A stretch of 64,000 nucleotides of DNA, taken from contig JBBRYR010000008.1 in the NCBI GenBank assembly GCA_038237415.1, forward strand, positions 25,852 to 89,851. Direction: 5' to 3'. The position numbers and the translations under genes are program-made. This document shows positions 12,331-55,374 of the stretch, piece after piece. Within the stretch, counting starts at the first letter, position 1. Each line of letters starts with the position of its first letter. Source of the stretch: Burkholderiales bacterium (GTDB taxonomy: Bacteria; Pseudomonadota; Gammaproteobacteria; Burkholderiales; Burkholderiaceae_C). The notes under the pieces were generated by a model, which had not been told where the DNA came from, did not search any database, and saw only the letters and a list, made by a program, of their open reading frames with translations.

Positions 12331-12627
12331 ATGACAACACCTCTCACCCCCGAAGCCCTTGAAAAATTGGCCCGCAAGCGCGCAGGCGCCAAGCTGGGCT
12401 GGTATGCCCATGCCAGCGTGTTTGTGCTGGTCAACCTGTTCGTGTTCTCCCTGTCGGAGTACGCGTTTGGCACCCGCGCCTGGTCCATCAAGCCGCTGCT
12501 GGGCTGGGGGCTGGGGCTGTGCCTGCATGGCATTGCGGTGTGGTTTCTGGGTGCTGGCGGCAACCTGCGCGAAGGCCTGGTGCAGCGCGAGCGCGAACGC
12601 CTTCAGCGCGAGCAAGACAAGCGCTGA
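12331..12627 (+). CDS. 2TM-domain membrane protein
   Basis: ARKRAGAK-GWYAHASVFVLVN ... LGWGLGLCLHG pattern; 6 nt upstream of the kinase. Confidence 0.85.
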   Translation: MTTPLTPEALEKLARKRAGAKLGWYAHASVFVLVNLFVFSLSEYAFGTRAWSIKPLLGWGLGLCLHGIAVWFLGAGGNLREGLVQRERERLQREQDKR

Positions 12628-12633
12628 CCCACC

Positions 12634-13683
12634 ATGAAAATTGACTGGCTGAACAAGCTGCAATACTTTTTGCAGACCATGGCGTTTTGCCTGGCGGTGT
12701 CGGCCATTCAGTACGCGTTTCAGCCACAGTGGGCTTATGAGATTGCGCTGGTCTATTCAGTCTGCATCGGCACCTGTATCTGGGCGCTGACCGACTTTGG
12801 GCGCCATCTGGTGCCCTCGGCAGCAGAGACCGGTTGGCCCCAGGGCGCGGCCGGGTTTGCATTGCCCCTGGTCGCCATGGTGCTGGGCTATGTGCTGGGC
12901 ACACTGGCCGGTGATCAGGTGTTTGGCTGGTCGTCATGGAGCTTTCAGGCGGGCTCGAAGCTGCCCGCCTCCATCATCATCACGGGGCTGGCCGGCACCG
13001 CAGCCTCGTATTACTTCTACACCAGGACCCGGCATGGCTACCTGCAGCGCCGGGTAGAAGAAGCGCGCGGCCAGGCCATGGAGTCGCGCCTCAAGCTGCT
13101 GGAAACCCAGCTGGAGCCCCACATGCTGTTCAACACGCTGGCCAACCTGCGTGCGCTCATCGGCACCGACCCCACCCGCGCCCAGACCATGCTGGACCAC
13201 ATGGTGGCTTACCTGCGCGCCACGCTCAGCGCATCGCGCTCCAGCACGCACCCGCTGGAGCGCGAGTTTGAACGACTGAAGGACTACCTGGAGCTGATGG
13301 CCATCCGCATGGGCCCCCGCCTGCAGTTCACACTGGATCTTCCCGACGACTTGCGCCAGCACCCCCTGCCGTCCTTGCTGCTGCAGCCGCTGGTAGAAAA
13401 CAGCATTCAGCACGGCCTGGAGCCCAAGGTAGCGGGCGGCAGCATCACCGTGCGCGCCCGGCGCAGCGGCAACCGGCTGACGCTGGAAGTAGAAGACACC
13501 GGCATGGGTTTCGATGCCGCCCGTGCAGGCGCAGGCAGTGCCGCGCAGGACGGCCGGGGCTTTGGGCTGAGCCAGGTGCGCGAGCGCCTGGCCACCACCT
13601 ACGGAACAGAAGCCGCTATCAATTTGATAGCTGGTAGCGCAGGTGGTACGCGGGCTAGCATCACTTTTCCTTGCAAACCATGA
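12634..13683 (+). CDS. LytS/AlgZ-type sensor histidine kinase
   Basis: TM region, ETQLEPHMLFNTLAN H-box, LQPLVENSIQHG N-box, EDTGMG and GFGLSQVRERL. Confidence 0.95.
   Translation: MKIDWLNKLQYFLQTMAFCLAVSAIQYAFQPQWAYEIALVYSVCIGTCIWALTDFGRHLVPSAAETGWPQGAAGFALPLVAMVLGYVLGTLAGDQVFGWSSWSFQAGSKLPASIIITGLAGTAASYYFYTRTRHGYLQRRVEEARGQAMESRLKLLETQLEPHMLFNTLANLRALIGTDPTRAQTMLDHMVAYLRATLSASRSSTHPLEREFERLKDYLELMAIRMGPRLQFTLDLPDDLRQHPLPSLLLQPLVENSIQHGLEPKVAGGSITVRARRSGNRLTLEVEDTGMGFDAARAGAGSAAQDGRGFGLSQVRERLATTYGTEAAINLIAGSAGGTRASITFPCKP
13614..13658 (+). repeat. 45-bp repeat family A, copy in frame inside the kinase CDS
   Basis: CGCTATCAATTTGATAGC-TGGTAGCGC-AGGTGGTAC-GCGGGCTAG aligns without gaps to the intergenic copies. 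Confidence 0.75.
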
Positions 13684-14498
13684 CACCAAAAGCCCCCACG
13701 GCCCTGATTGCGGAAGACGAGCCCCTGCTGGCCGCGGCCCTGCAGGCTGAGCTGGCGCACGCATGGCCAGCACTGCAGGTGGTGGCCACGGTGGGCGACG
13801 GCGCCTCGGCCGTGCAGCAGGCGCTGGCCCTGCAACCTGACGTGCTGTTTTTTGATATTCGCATGCCCGGCATGGGCGGGCTGGAGGCCGCTGCCGAGCT
13901 GGCCGACCTGTGGCCCACGGCGCCCGCCGGTGGCTTGCCAGCGCGGCCCTTCCCCGCACTGGTGTTTGTGACCGCTTACGACCAATACGCCGTGCAGGCC
14001 TTTGAGGCCCAGGCGGTGGACTACCTGCTCAAGCCCGTACAAACCGCGCGCCTGCAGAAAACAGTGGCAAAACTGCAGCTAGCCCTCGCCAAACCTGCGC
14101 AAGCTGCTATGGATTTGGAAGCAACGCTGGGCCAGCTGCGCGGTTTGCTTGCGCCACCTCAGCCCGCTAACCCGCTGCTGAAAATGATTCAGGTCAGCGT
14201 GGGCAGTGCCATCCGCATGGTGCCGATGGACGACGTGGTGTACTTTGAAGCCGCCGACAAATACCTGCGCGTGCTCACCGCCGGGCACGAGTATTTGATC
14301 CGCACCCCCATCAAAGACCTGTTGCCCCAGCTCGACCCCCAGCTGTTCTGGCAAGTGCACCGGGGCACCGTGGTGCGGGTGGAGCAAATTGCCTCGGTAC
14401 ACCGCGACGAGGCTGGCAAAACCAGCGTCAGCCTGCGCGACCGCGCCGAGAAGCTGGCCGTGAGCCGCCTCTACGCGCATCTGTTTCGAGCCATGTAG
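13680..14498 (+). CDS. LytTR-family response regulator
   Basis: IAEDE, FFDIRMPG, FVTAYD, YLLKP receiver motifs; C-terminal LytTR FWQVHRGTVV; ATGA overlap with the kinase stop. Confidence 0.95.
   Translation: MTPKAPTALIAEDEPLLAAALQAELAHAWPALQVVATVGDGASAVQQALALQPDVLFFDIRMPGMGGLEAAAELADLWPTAPAGGLPARPFPALVFVTAYDQYAVQAFEAQAVDYLLKPVQTARLQKTVAKLQLALAKPAQAAMDLEATLGQLRGLLAPPQPANPLLKMIQVSVGSAIRMVPMDDVVYFEAADKYLRVLTAGHEYLIRTPIKDLLPQLDPQLFWQVHRGTVVRVEQIASVHRDEAGKTSVSLRDRAEKLAVSRLYAHLFRAM
14079..14123 (-). repeat. 45-bp repeat family A, antisense copy inside the regulator linker
   Basis: Reverse complement reads TGCTTCCAAATCCATAGC-AGCTTGCGC-AGGTTTGGC-GAGGGCTAG. Confidence 0.75.
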
Positions 14499-14587: not shown

Positions 14588-15178
14588 ATGACGATTCAAT
14601 ACACCTCGGTGGCCAACCACCTGCCCGAGAACAAAATGCGGCTGTACCCCACCAAGGTGATCAACGTCATTGGCGGGCCGGGTTGCGACAAATCGCTGGT
14701 GACCTCTGCCATCATCCTGTTCCTGAAGCTGCATGACAAAACGGTTGAGGTGATACCTGATTACGCCAAGTCCCTGGTGTGGCAGCAAAACTTTGAAGTG
14801 CTCAAAAACCAGTATTTCATTGCCCAGCGCCAGTACGAAATGCTGAACCTGCTGGACGGGCAAATCCAGTTCCTGATTACCGAGTGCTCCCTGCCCCAGG
14901 TGCTGTACTACAACGAAAACTACGCCGACAACATTTGCGACATCGGCAAAACCCGCACCCAGATTCTGAACTGGTACAAGCAGCACAACAACATCAACGT
15001 GCTGGTGGAACGCGGCGACCGCAAATACATTCACACCGGTCGTTTTCAGGACGAAGAACAGGCCAAGGGCATTGACCGCGGCCTGCGCGGCATATTGACC
15101 CGCGAGGGGCTGCGCTACACCGCCCTGCCGGGCAATGTGGAAGCCATCAACGCCTTTGCGGCAACCCTTCTGGAATAG
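14588..15178 (+). CDS. NadR-like/AAA_28 P-loop kinase-fold protein with a variant Walker A
   Basis: VINVIGGPGCDKS, EVIPDYAKSLVW, QFLITEC, GRFQDEEQA. Confidence 0.75.
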   Translation: MTIQYTSVANHLPENKMRLYPTKVINVIGGPGCDKSLVTSAIILFLKLHDKTVEVIPDYAKSLVWQQNFEVLKNQYFIAQRQYEMLNLLDGQIQFLITECSLPQVLYYNENYADNICDIGKTRTQILNWYKQHNNINVLVERGDRKYIHTGRFQDEEQAKGIDRGLRGILTREGLRYTALPGNVEAINAFAATLLE

Positions 15179-21766: not shown

Positions 21767-21771
21767 TGATT

Positions 21772-21816
21772 TGCTACGTTTTTTGTAGCTGCTTGCGCAT
21801 ATTCCACGGGGGCTAG
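21772..21816 (+). repeat. 45-bp repeat family A, copy 1 of the island array
   Basis: TGCTACGTTTTTTGTAGC-TGCTTGCGC-ATATTCCAC-GGGGGCTAG, then AGGCC. Confidence 0.95.
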
Positions 21817-21862
21817 AGGCCAATTTGACACACCGATGGCTTGCTACGGTAAACTCAATTTC

Positions 21863-22497: not shown

Positions 22498-22511
22498 TCT
22501 CAGCTTGTGAT

Positions 22512-22556
22512 TGCTACGTTTTTGATAGCTTCTTGTGCATATTCCACGGGGGCTAG
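22512..22556 (+). repeat. 45-bp repeat family A, copy 2
   Basis: TGCTACGTTTTTGATAGC-TTCTTGTGC-ATATTCCAC-GGGGGCTAG. Confidence 0.95.
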
Positions 22557-22563
22557 AGGCCTA

Positions 22564-23121
22564 TTACTTGCACCATTGCATTTCGCAAGGCACGCCGTCG
22601 CCGTTTCCGTCCATCTTTACGCCCGGGCAGTTAGCCAGAAAATACTTTGCCTCCTGGCAGGAGGTCATCTGCGTGCAATAGCGGCGGCCGTCGCATCTGA
22701 AGTTCGTTGGTGCGGGCGGCGGCTCCGGCAACAAAAGCTCAGCCTGCGCCGCGCGCATCTGTGCGGTGCGCTTGGTGTAGTGCTTGTACCCATACACACC
22801 CAGCGAAGCCAGTATCAACAGCAGTATGAGCTTGCTGCCAAAGCCGGTGCCGCTTGATGCGGGGTTGGCGGGCCTGGCAGAGCGCGGCGGCGTGGTGCGC
22901 GGTGCAGCTTGCACCCCAGGGCGGCTGACGCGCACGGCCTTCTTTTTGCCGTCGCGATCAGGTTCAATCTCAAAGCTGAGGCGTTCGCCTTCAGTCGGTG
23001 CAGCGCCGTCGCGGGCAAAGGCCGACACGTGGACAAAGATGTCCTGTCCGCCGTCGTCGGCCACAATAAATCCATAGCCGCGGTCAGCGTCCCATTTTTT
23101 TAGTTTGCCTTGGTAGCGCAT
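22564..23121 (-). CDS. Cold-shock-domain + TM + excalibur Ca-binding domain protein
   Basis: GKLKKWDADRGYGFI and IFVHVSAF (RNP motifs); TM; CDGRRYCTQMTSCQEAKYFLANCPGVKMDGNGDGVPCE. Confidence 0.9.
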   Translation of the reverse strand: MRYQGKLKKWDADRGYGFIVADDGGQDIFVHVSAFARDGAAPTEGERLSFEIEPDRDGKKKAVRVSRPGVQAAPRTTPPRSARPANPASSGTGFGSKLILLLILASLGVYGYKHYTKRTAQMRAAQAELLLPEPPPAPTNFRCDGRRYCTQMTSCQEAKYFLANCPGVKMDGNGDGVPCEMQWCK

Positions 23122-23161
23122 CTATTTTTACTCCCTTGCGGAGAATTATCGCCAAACTATC

Positions 23162-23206
23162 CGCTATGTTTTTGGTAGCTGCTTGCGCATATTCCACGGG
23201 GACTGG
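23162..23206 (+). repeat. 45-bp repeat family A, copy 3
   Basis: CGCTATGTTTTTGGTAGC-TGCTTGCGC-ATATTCCAC-GGGGACTGG. Confidence 0.95.
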
Positions 23207-23321
23207 AGGCTTATTTGATACAAAGTTTCCCGCGCGCGAGCCCCGGCAATCCCCCCACGGGTGTGCCACCACACAGACGGCGGCACGTTTCAGGCGTGCA
23301 ATGCAGATTTAGGAGCCCGCC

Positions 23322-23560: not shown

Positions 23561-23605
23561 GGGCCGCACCCCTGCGGCTGCTTACGCATATTCCATGGGG
23601 GCTGG
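23561..23605 (+). repeat. 45-bp repeat family A, copy 4 (5' hairpin replaced)
   Basis: The 3' part GC-TGCTTACGC-ATATTCCAT-GGGGGCTGG is conserved; the 5' 18 nt form a different hairpin, GCCGCA-CCCC-TGCGGC. Confidence 0.8.
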
Positions 23606-23676
23606 AGTCACTTTTTCTAACTGTGCGCCAATCGAACGCAATTAGAACCAATATCCTAAAAAATTGTTTCTTGTAT

Positions 23677-24933: not shown

Positions 24934-24941
24934 AGTCGGTT

Positions 24942-24986
24942 TGCTACGTTTTCAATAGCTGCCTGCGCATATTCCACGAGGGCTAG
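24942..24986 (+). repeat. 45-bp repeat family A, copy 5
   Basis: TGCTACGTTTTCAATAGC-TGCCTGCGC-ATATTCCAC-GAGGGCTAG. Confidence 0.95.
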
Positions 24987-25018
24987 AGGTCTATCTGTTA
25001 CATAATTTGGCAATCACC

Positions 25019-28372: not shown

Positions 28373-28440
28373 CCCTGTAGTCCGTGGACTGATCTGTGGA
28401 TAAGCGTGTTCACAACGCGAAAAACCCGCCAGAATGCTTT
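28373..28440 (+). repeat. DnaA-box-containing repeat family B, single copy
   Basis: CCCTG..CGTGGACTGATC-TGTGGATAA(28395-28403)-GCGTGTTCACAA..AAACCCGC. Confidence 0.75.
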
Positions 28441-41165: not shown

Positions 41166-41243
41166 AATCGGTGGCAGATCCCTGGGTTCGGACAGGGGCA
41201 TTGTTGGCGCAGACCTGCTGCTGAATGCATCCGGAAATGGTTC

Positions 41244-41288
41244 TGCTATGTTTTGTATAGCTACTTGCGCATGCAGCACGGGGGATGG
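41244..41288 (+). repeat. 45-bp repeat family A, isolated copy
   Basis: TGCTATGTTTTGTATAGC-TACTTGCGC-ATGCAGCAC-GGGGGATGG. Confidence 0.85.
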
Positions 41289-41358
41289 GGCCTTTTTTTG
41301 CTTAAAGTTACACTGTAAGCAGACCGCAAAAACGCGGCAATAGCATCAGGGAAAACAG

Positions 41359-50431: not shown

Positions 50432-50744
50432 CCCCCGCAGACTGTGCGCCACGCTGTGGATAACCGCACTGGGAAGCCGCCAAACCCGCGCCAGTACTGG
50501 CTTGGCGGACCATGCCTAATAATTAATCAACATACGTATCAGCGTGATCAGGTTTCAGTCGTTTCTCGAATGAAGCACTTTTTTGTGATAGCAGTTACAG
50601 CGGCAATGCATAGGGCACCCTGCTGGCCGCAGAGGCCCATTGTTACCCCTGATTTCTGTGGAGCACGCTGTGGATAACAATGTTCACAAGTCACCAAACC
50701 CGCGCCAGCAGGGGCTATAAGCCGGGTGCCTTGCAAATGAGCAG
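50432..50744 (+). repeat. Composite element: two family-B units with DnaA boxes
   Basis: TGTGGATAA at 50455 and 50669 (214 bp apart); TGTGATAGCA at 50584; GTGCCTTGCAAATGAGCAG at 50726. Confidence 0.85.
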
Positions 50745-52009: not shown

Positions 52010-52123
52010 GGCGGGTTTCCTTATCGAAGTGGGATGAGGCCGGGTGTCCATCCCATTGTGCATCGCCCAAACAGGCGCGGCTAGACCTGTGCGCGCGAGC
52101 GCGCATGGCTTACCCGACCATTT

Positions 52124-52168
52124 CACTATCAAATAGATAGCTGCCTGCGCATATTCCACGGGGGCTGG
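52124..52168 (+). repeat. 45-bp repeat family A, isolated copy
   Basis: CACTATCAAATAGATAGC-TGCCTGCGC-ATATTCCAC-GGGGGCTGG. Confidence 0.9.
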
Positions 52169-52211
52169 CGGCCATTTTTATCTATAGACTTCGGGTTTTG
52201 CCCATTTCACC

Positions 52212-55055: not shown

Positions 55056-55374
55056 CTTACCCCTGAGAGCTGTGGGCCACGTTGTGGATAACTAGACTCA
55101 CAAGCTGCCAATCCCGCACCAGTGCTGGCTTTGCAGCCGCTGCTCATTATTTAAGCAAATCAGGTAATTCACTGGAAGATTTTTTGCCTAATTTGCCAAT
55201 GGGAAAGAAATGTGTGATAGCAAAAAATAGTGTTGGTCAATCTGCTGCAATGCAGCACCTATGAGTCCCCAGTTACCCCCGATTCCTGTGGGCCACGTTG
55301 TGGATAACTATGTTTATAAGCCTCAAAACCCGCACCACGACTGGCTTTGCCGACAGTGCCTTGTAATTGACCAG
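55056..55374 (+). repeat. Second copy of the composite DnaA-box element
   Basis: TGTGGATAA at 55083 and 55299 (216 bp apart); TGTGATAGCA at 55213; GTGCCTTGTAATTGACCAG at 55356. Confidence 0.85.

Follow-up and report, generated by a model that had tools for sequence, protein, structure and literature searches.

A dispersed repeat read in frame in both genes of a LytS/LytTR-type two-component system of a Burkholderiales bacterium: probably a lineage-specific DNA motif overprinted on coding sequence

The DNA examined here is a stretch of 64,000 nucleotides (nt), called the window throughout, taken from contig JBBRYR010000008.1 of a Burkholderiales bacterium (C8:25852-89851 of a 3.89-Mb draft genome, G000, with 195 contigs and 59.4% G+C). 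It holds a two-component system whose kinase and regulator genes each contain a copy of a short dispersed repeat that we call family A (Table 1). The sensor matches His_kinase (PF06580, 1e-19) and, over residues 249-347 of 349, HATPase_c (PF02518, 2e-11); the regulator matches Response_reg (PF00072, 3e-18, residues 9-129) and LytTR (PF04397, 5e-22, residues 177-271). The two genes overlap in an ATGA, the regulator's ATG lying on the kinase stop codon. A His_kinase and HATPase_c sensor beside a receiver (REC) and LytTR regulator makes this a LytS/LytTR-type pair; the pair is conserved in relatives, the regulator's closest named relatives being Rhodoferax and Polaromonas assemblies, which places the bacterium in the Rhodoferax group of Comamonadaceae. 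Upstream lies a gene for a small 2TM-domain membrane protein (12331-12627), and downstream one for an AAA_28 P-loop protein (14588-15178).

Table 1. The two-component genes and the family-A copies of the window (positions are those of the window; scores are nhmmer bit scores).
Feature	Position	Strand	Score or size	Remarks
LytS-type sensor histidine kinase gene	12634-13683	+	349 residues	host of family-A copy 1
Family-A copy in kinase gene	13610-13678	+	42.9 bits	site excluded from profile; E 7e-11 genome-wide
LytTR-family response regulator gene (REC + LytTR)	13680-14498	+	272 residues	host of family-A copy 2
Family-A copy in regulator gene	14125-14063	-	38.2 bits	site excluded from profile; E 2e-9
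Reference intergenic family-A copy	21768-21832	+	62.8 bits	directly after DUF4357 gene
Intergenic family-A copy	22507-22566	+	52.4 bits	after MNT/HepT toxin-antitoxin pair
Intergenic family-A copy	23155-23231	+	58.7 bits	
Partial family-A copy	23577-23616	+	27.4 bits	3' half only
Intergenic family-A copy	24936-25012	+	57.4 bits	after AbiEii gene
Family-A copy	41241-41312	+	38.3 bits	
Family-A copy	52118-52191	+	57.7 bits	overlaps predicted 5' end of minus-strand gene

In the kinase, the copy is read in sense frame 0 as (E)AAINLIAGSAGGTRASITFP, which makes up the last strands of HATPase_c, and it ends 5 nt short of the stop codon. In the regulator, the copy runs antisense to its gene; antisense frame 1 yields KLQLALAKPAQAAMDLEA, which takes in the end of the receiver domain together with the first part of the linker. 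A first-pass annotation, made from the letters of the window, had assigned to the repeat the peptide AINLIAGSAGGTRAS at the kinase C-terminus and the peptide LALAKPAQAAMDLEA directly after the receiver domain, and the translations of the open reading frames (ORFs) together with the Pfam matches bear out both. Its central observation, that a dispersed repeat is translated in both partners without frameshift, is confirmed by the profile matches and the frame assignment. The repeat length of 45 nt that it gave was too short: both segments do belong to the family, and the match extends to about 65 nt at each site.

Family A was searched for with an nhmmer profile started from six copies in the window, iterated over the genome and rebuilt from 411 copies without the candidate region; a repeat search within the window also recovered the family and linked each of the two candidate sites to it. 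Genome-wide, 459 copies score at least 25 bits, and 426 of these reach 30 bits. Besides the kinase and regulator sites, the window has seven copies. Two decoys, the reversed genome and the genome shuffled in 100-nt blocks, gave no family-A match at 15 bits or more, so the possibility raised beforehand, that shuffled controls would match equally well, did not materialize. The consensus, tttGCTAttaatttaaTAGCtgcttgCGCAgtttccaCGgGGGCTagaggcctatttgac, has a fixed length of about 65 base pairs (bp), with near-invariant blocks (GCT-N11-AGC-N6-CGCA-N7-CG.GGGCT) separated by variable spacers, and the copies align without gaps over 72 columns. Mean pairwise identity among copies is 61%. With a mean G+C content of 48%, they are poorer in G+C than the genome (59%) and than third codon positions (73%).

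The first-pass annotation had described a dispersed intergenic repeat. Dispersed it is; mainly intergenic it is not, as about 45% of the copies are intragenic. Of the 426 copies that reach 30 bits, 187 fall entirely within predicted genes, most of them in one of two frames; this fraction is approximate, since the genes come from our own simple codon-score caller (3235 genes, 87% coding). A strict criterion, which requires confidently scored genes and a distance of 60 nt or more to both gene ends, retains 133 intragenic copies. When the threshold is lowered to 25 bits, 211 copies are fully intragenic and two frames account for 179 of them: sense frame 0, reading A-(I/M/T)-x-x-(I/V)-A-A-x-A-x-S-T-G-A, and antisense frame 1, reading L-A-P-V-E-x-A-Q-A-A-I-K-x-I-A. 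The kinase and regulator sites use precisely these two commonest coding frames (92 and 87 intragenic copies, respectively). Information profiles are the same for intergenic, sense and antisense copies, and orientation shows no clear bias with respect to local GC skew (128 versus 102 where |skew| exceeds 0.02). Hosts confirmed by Pfam include MutL (two copies), TrpF, MoeA, a ROK kinase and an amidohydrolase, and the regions of PurL that hold its two copies align to solved PurL structures (sequences from the PDB). Intergenic copies lie at a median of 15-30 nt past stop codons, whichever way they point, with an excess between convergent genes, and some 50 genes have their end within a family-A copy. 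Many of the sense-frame copies close to gene starts look, by eye, as if they coded for signal peptides or lipobox-like stretches, e.g., MKNTIKFIATCAILAGASG, which suggests that leader peptides preferentially tolerate the motif.

One has to keep these numbers in mind when considering the two-component pair, which the earlier reading had presented as a repeat domesticated twice within 0.5 kb. Two copies there are, 465 nt apart and among the closest family-A pairs. The pair is nonetheless less special than that wording implies, with 184 of about 3235 genes holding a copy; nor is it a statistical oddity, since adjacent genes both carry a copy in 7 cases against 10.5 expected by chance.

We then turn to the question raised with the first-pass annotation, whether the segments are insertions or replacements. 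A codon alignment of about 30 orthologs from a public genome collection was split into pattern-bearing orthologs (several Rhodoferax and Polaromonas assemblies and two Acidovorax) and pattern-lacking ones (Variovorax, Hydrogenophaga, Delftia, Ramlibacter, Massilia and others). No indel occurs at the kinase site across the whole set: from the YG motif to the final proline, the length is identical in bearing and lacking orthologs, other families included. Within the genus, protein alignments show no indel at either the kinase or the regulator site, and orthologs match the family-A profile at both positions (e.g., L003, 35.4 and 32.4 bits; L011, 29.9 and 32.8 bits). The HATPase_c end motif G-G-T...I-x-F-P is kept in orthologs across Comamonadaceae and beyond; its residues Gly-Gly-Thr and I-x-F-P fall in the variable spacers of the motif or coincide with its blocks. 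Bearing kinases read GCT ATC AAT TTG ATA GCT ... GCA GGT GGT ACG CGG GCT AGC ATC ACT TTT CCT, with rare AT-ending codons (GCT/ATA/GTA/TTA/ACT/TTT/CCT), whereas lacking kinases encode a similar peptide with GC-ending codons. In the regulator, no indel accompanies the CTGCAG CTAGCCC part, which recodes the last stretch of the receiver domain. Orthologs labelled Rhodoferax and Polaromonas have both sites again; in addition, Acidovorax sp. SDU_ACID1 shows the kinase site weakly, and Ottowia flava the regulator site. In the congener G011, which is free of family A, an in-frame TAG splits the kinase ortholog (L009, G011:C85) into two ORFs, and this ortholog is possibly a pseudogene.

These alignments also bear on the idea that the resemblance is due to chance or is forced by the amino-acid sequences of the two proteins. 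The end of HATPase_c and the receiver helix are conserved protein segments, so orthologs could share the encoding nucleotides for that reason. Against this, decoys give nothing at 15 bits, to be compared with 42.9 and 38.2 bits at the two sites, and family-A-free orthologs encode similar peptides with different, GC-ending codons: third-position identity between the window and lacking orthologs is 0.28 and 0.22 inside the two sites versus 0.53-0.56 outside. The converse possibility, namely that orthologs from genomes lacking family A would have the same nucleotide pattern, was likewise not borne out, the kinase orthologs of G011 (0 copies) and G012 (1 copy) being without it. We thus regard this explanation as having a negligible chance of being right.

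The same question was asked genome-wide with a congener without any family-A match (G005, 730 kb compared). At 25 intragenic sites, the difference in length is 0 at 12 of them, ranges from -12 to +11 and averages +1.4 residues; the gain of a whole element (+22 residues) is seen at none. At the MutL copy that overlies the conserved GFRGEAL region of the ATPase domain, the peptide AAINSIADCAILSRA is identical in both genomes and nine nucleotides differ, all synonymous and all making the genome under study match the motif. At PurL site 1, the profile matches exactly the 12 family-A-positive congeners, and the family-A-negative ones have the same loop length, with GC-rich codons and partly similar residues. 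Two observations on these genes, both outside the window, can be added. PurL (C22:8394-12614) has its two copies in different frames, each in a loop 7 residues longer than in Salmonella PurL. MutL (C96:2-1936) has one copy in the ATPase domain, over GFRGEAL...SI, and the other in the interdomain linker.

The conservation of the copies was followed in a family-A-positive species, G013 (363 kb compared, about 78% nucleotide identity to the genome under study). Sites are shared almost without exception: 15 of 15 comparable copies have a partner in G013, and 16 of 17 alignable G013 copies have one in return. Over nine intragenic sites, third-codon identity is 79.5% inside copies versus 56.8% in flanking coding sequence, while identity at codon positions 1 and 2 drops from 87% and 92% outside to 80% and 84% inside, so that the codon-periodic pattern of conservation vanishes inside the motif. 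This is the mark of nucleotides that are themselves constrained, in regions where constraint on the protein is relaxed. The two-component genes show the same tendency between the window and bearing orthologs, with third-position identities of 0.68 inside versus 0.52 outside in the kinase and, more weakly, 0.64 versus 0.58 in the regulator. Judging from these comparisons, the kinase and regulator copies are old and predate the split from the other motif-bearing species.

Family A is probably a lineage-specific DNA-level recognition motif overprinted on coding sequence. The comparisons show that the motif is maintained as double-stranded sequence, whatever the coding strand or frame, and that the intragenic copies are written over existing codons by synonymous changes to rare AT-ending codons, conservative replacements and small indels. 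Such overprinting takes place where the encoded peptide is tolerated, no complete element being inserted: the kinase copy keeps the residues of the ATPase fold (GGT...I.F.P) in the variable spacers of the motif, and the regulator copy recodes the end of the last receiver helix and runs into the flexible linker. The motif would persist because a trans-acting factor reads the DNA, and we infer, with rather more confidence than doubt, that this putative reader is a protein contacting about 45 bp of duplex DNA, given the spaced conserved blocks, the same behaviour on both strands and the over-dispersion of the copies. By analogy, it could be a chromosome-architecture or topology protein, as for repetitive extragenic palindromes (REPs) and bacterial interspersed mosaic elements (BIMEs), or a specificity factor for DNA uptake or recombination, as for the uptake signal sequences (USS) and DNA uptake sequences (DUS); we rank the two about equally.

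Several results weigh against overprinting of a maintained motif. No reader protein was found. Over-dispersion (8 distances of 600 nt or less between neighbouring copies, versus 26.6 +/- 4.6 expected at random) could come partly from contig breaks at repeats or from selection against two copies per gene. The GCTAT...TAGC part of the regulator copy lies in a linker of variable length that is somewhat longer in bearing orthologs. When a distant outgroup from another family is used (G029, 800 kb compared), 16 repeat windows average +5.7 residues, none being equal and the maximum being +19, whereas control windows of the same proteins average +1.3 and 66% are equal; either the motif is accompanied by small sequence gains or it prefers indel-prone loops. 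Finally, at sites whose length is shared with family-A-negative genomes, the direction of change is not fully polarisable, as ancient copies that had decayed in family-A-negative lineages would look alike.

The gains relative to the outgroup and the longer regulator linker are what one would expect if the copies were ancient in-frame insertions of a small mobile element, later trimmed in length and now immobile. Such an origin would also fit the finding of in-frame copies, chiefly in the two open frames of the consensus, in some 190 genes, the REP-like enrichment past stop codons and between convergent genes, and the intragenic REPs known from the literature (PMC3733652). Yet a mean gain of +5.7 where 22 would be expected is still no 22-residue insertion; +22 residues are found at no site, 12 of 25 sites show zero length change relative to the repeat-free congener, and no ortholog examined, other families included, differs in length at the kinase site. 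The MutL copy lies over a universally conserved motif with an identical peptide and synonymous differences only, and insertion alone does not explain third-position conservation after long divergence. [quoted passage not shown] The gene for a REP-associated tyrosine transposase (RAYT) does not co-vary with the family. We consider such insertions unlikely. Of the verbs used in the first-pass annotation, "inserts" thus fails, the kinase C-terminus being equal in length with or without the pattern and no full-length insertion being seen genome-wide, and "replaces coding DNA" comes closest to the truth, except that in-place recoding looks likelier than a domesticated mobile element.

Replacement without a fixed change in length is equally predicted if ectopic short-patch gene conversion or templated repair writes and refreshes the copies, which would then evolve in concert in a selfish or neutral way, with neither reader nor function. 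The acquiring sites are indeed already motif-like: for the ACGgGGGCT of the motif, the Variovorax kinase already reads ACG CGG GCC; the family-A-negative PurL has AGCTAC.AAAAG; and the MutL peptide, the same with and without the motif, was pre-adapted. Conversion should, however, copy the variable positions of the donor, and over the 20 variable columns, nearest-neighbour identity is 0.67 versus 0.63 after column shuffling. Orthologous kinase copies share derived spacers (GGTGGT) unlike the consensus, which indicates vertical descent; the retention of protein-critical residues in the spacers is what stepwise substitution under double constraint predicts, and over-dispersed spacing is not predicted by conversion. 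This second alternative seems to us quite unlikely.

A third one is that the element acts as RNA (an mRNA stabiliser, a terminator or a small-RNA target), the coding copies being by-products. Many copies do lie 15-30 nt past stop codons, and the 5' part can form a short GCTAY/RTAGC hairpin. Over 70 copies, however, RNAalifold gives 3 invariant pairs at -0.4 kcal/mol with no covariation, hence no consensus RNA structure and no long hairpin; an Rfam scan of 13 kb with seven copies (both two-component sites and the five-copy cluster) returned no match at E up to 1; and copies point with transcription as often as against it, with the same profile either way. An RNA element is therefore very improbable.

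The distribution of the motif was scanned with a sequence-only covariance model. Of 25 same-genus genomes, 12 have at least 121 family-A matches each, against 0-2 copies in each of the remaining 13. Within the family, matches occur in 46 of 150 genera, about 25 of which have at least 32; in 16 other families of the order, sampled by a single genome each, no family-A copy was found. The motif is thus specific to one Rhodoferax-like clade of Comamonadaceae and patchy in about a third of the genera of the family. In a PurL tree, all 11 family-A-positive genomes present fall in one clade (support 97/96), in which three family-A-negative genomes (G012, G019/G009) are nested that keep the loop length and not the nucleotides, as would be the case if these lineages had lost whatever maintains the motif and had then drifted towards GC-rich codons; on a single-gene tree, this is tentative. 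A phage collection gave no family-A match, and plasmid records with family A are only three (Rhodoferax antarcticus, Comamonadaceae OS-4 and Delftia).

We found no description of family A in the literature, and exact 15-16-mers of the consensus gave nothing; it was compared with known systems. The first-pass annotation had pointed to Rickettsia palindromic elements, which are palindromes of 100-150 bp that add a peptide segment (Ogata et al. 2000, as summarised in PMC3733652 and PMC10969869). Family A resembles them in being dispersed, in frame in functional genes, conserved at orthologous positions, mutually diverged and without transposase, and differs in its length of about 65 bp and in having no stable hairpin and no element-sized segment, as it can be written by synonymous changes alone.

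Uptake sequences have a core of 9-12 bp and occur about once per kb, USS in Pasteurellaceae and DUS in Neisseriaceae (Findlay & Redfield 2009, PMC2817400). Like them, family A has hundreds of copies in both orientations and in preferred frames, the share in ORFs being 35-65% for uptake sequences (PMC2817400), and it accumulates in place at tolerant protein positions, with stable orthologous sites and lineage-specific presence. Unlike them, it consists of about 45 bp of spaced blocks, occurs once per 8.5 kb and also flanks accessory defence genes. A ComP_DUS-like pilin gene is present too, with a homolog equally present in motif-free genomes. The genome under study encodes a ComP_DUS-family minor pilin at C2:91565-91840, outside the window. 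Across the order, such a pilin (PF16732) is found in most genomes, with or without the motif, and is uninformative; we rejected it as the uptake receptor, its presence not co-varying with the motif. Sequence-specific DNA uptake machinery may exist in the group.

REPs are strong palindromes of 20-40 bp, mostly extragenic and linked to RAYT, and intragenic REPs have been interpreted as insertions (Di Nocera et al. 2013, PMC3733652). Family A shares with REP/BIME and with the GTAG-tagged REP superfamily its few hundred copies (about 1 per 10 kb), its preference for sites just past genes or between convergent genes, its supply of some stop codons and its GTAGC/GCTAC pair. It differs from REPs in lacking a strong palindrome, in being about 45% intragenic and in that the RAYT-like gene is present regardless of the family: a RAYT-type Y1 transposase gene (PF01797) occurs in all 16 same-genus genomes searched (G000-G015), positive and negative alike. 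The single RAYT-like gene of the genome under study (C16:51962-52706, outside the window) lies just upstream of gltB and is followed, on one side only, by one weak antisense family-A copy (25.8 bits). With no co-variation and a single weak adjacent copy, RAYT was rejected as the mobilising enzyme. Family A thus shows the full set of features neither of REP/BIME nor of uptake sequences. The HIP1 octamer of cyanobacteria is another over-represented sequence, which spreads through coding DNA by substitution and codon choice; family A is eight times longer than this 8-bp palindrome and asymmetric.

Closer to home, the potential novel motifs listed by a statistical survey include ATAGCT(N)22CAAAAG, which has 125 copies in Polaromonas naphthalenivorans CJ2 (Tong et al. 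2017, PMC5217627). It is often near gene ends or between convergent genes, 18 copies are intragenic, and the paper reports only counts (PMC5217627). Family A has the ATAGCT head in common with it, as well as a second block at a spacing of 22 nt; the genome under study has 0 copies of ATAGCT(N)22CAAAAG and 53 of ATAGCT(N)22CTAGAG. Compared by its published motif, the CJ2 sequence may be a dialect of family A, and related dialects may exist in other Comamonadaceae genera. The beta-proteobacterial repeat element (BRE) is also found in Comamonadaceae (about 90 bp, 69% G+C, often tandem, with some coding copies; Hot et al. 2011, PMC3110155); family A, with 48% G+C, dispersed and never tandem, was rejected as a BRE. 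That the repeat might be the operator of the LytTR regulator itself was dropped by reasoning, as some 450 copies, half of them coding and in both orientations, are unlike a regulon, and copies in two adjacent genes do not exceed chance.

Elsewhere in the window, between 21353 and 25345, five co-oriented copies (21768, 22507, 23155, 23577 and 24936) each follow a small accessory module; these modules comprise a DUF4357/RAMA protein, an MNT and HepT pair, a CSD and Excalibur protein encoded on the opposite strand, and an AbiEii toxin. Cassette boundaries in a defence island thus carry the motif, as core genes do. The five copies, flanking defence and toxin-antitoxin cassettes, had suggested an attC or integron-like site. 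As a general explanation this was rejected, since the element has no foldable structure, no attC core is visible by eye in the consensus, and housekeeping genes have copies at synonymous sites.

A second repeat family, of about 57-109 nt, is also present in the window (28373-28429, 50433-50489, 50647-50703 and 55277-55333). It is built around CTGTGGATAA (on the other strand, the DnaA-box-like TTATCCACA), ends in AAACCCGC and includes two pairs spaced 214-216 nt.

Intragenic repeats of bacteria are usually read as tolerated selfish insertions. Family A, without element-sized insertion, at least partly written by synonymous changes and conserved at third positions after long divergence, represents a second layer of information over the coding sequence, and suggests a previously undescribed genome-wide DNA signal. 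Whether it is a new kind of signal altogether, i.e., long (about 45-65 bp), asymmetric and multi-block, with about 450 over-dispersed sites per chromosome, written by codon choice into housekeeping genes, maintained by selection or by a drive overriding codon usage, and recognised by a putative lineage-specific reader, is a proposal to which we give slightly less than an even chance. On the practical side, the copies distort codon-usage statistics, estimates of the ratio of nonsynonymous to synonymous substitution rates (dN/dS) and, since genes start or end inside them, annotation. For the two-component system, the finding means that the motif can encode one of the structural strands of the ATPase domain while the key residues of the fold are kept. 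The carriers form a large group of environmental bacteria that can be cultured. Should there be a reader protein, it would be a new DNA-recognition system for chromosome organisation, uptake or recombination, and family A would offer a tractable model of the coevolution of signal and proteome, which has so far been studied mainly on the much shorter USS and DUS.

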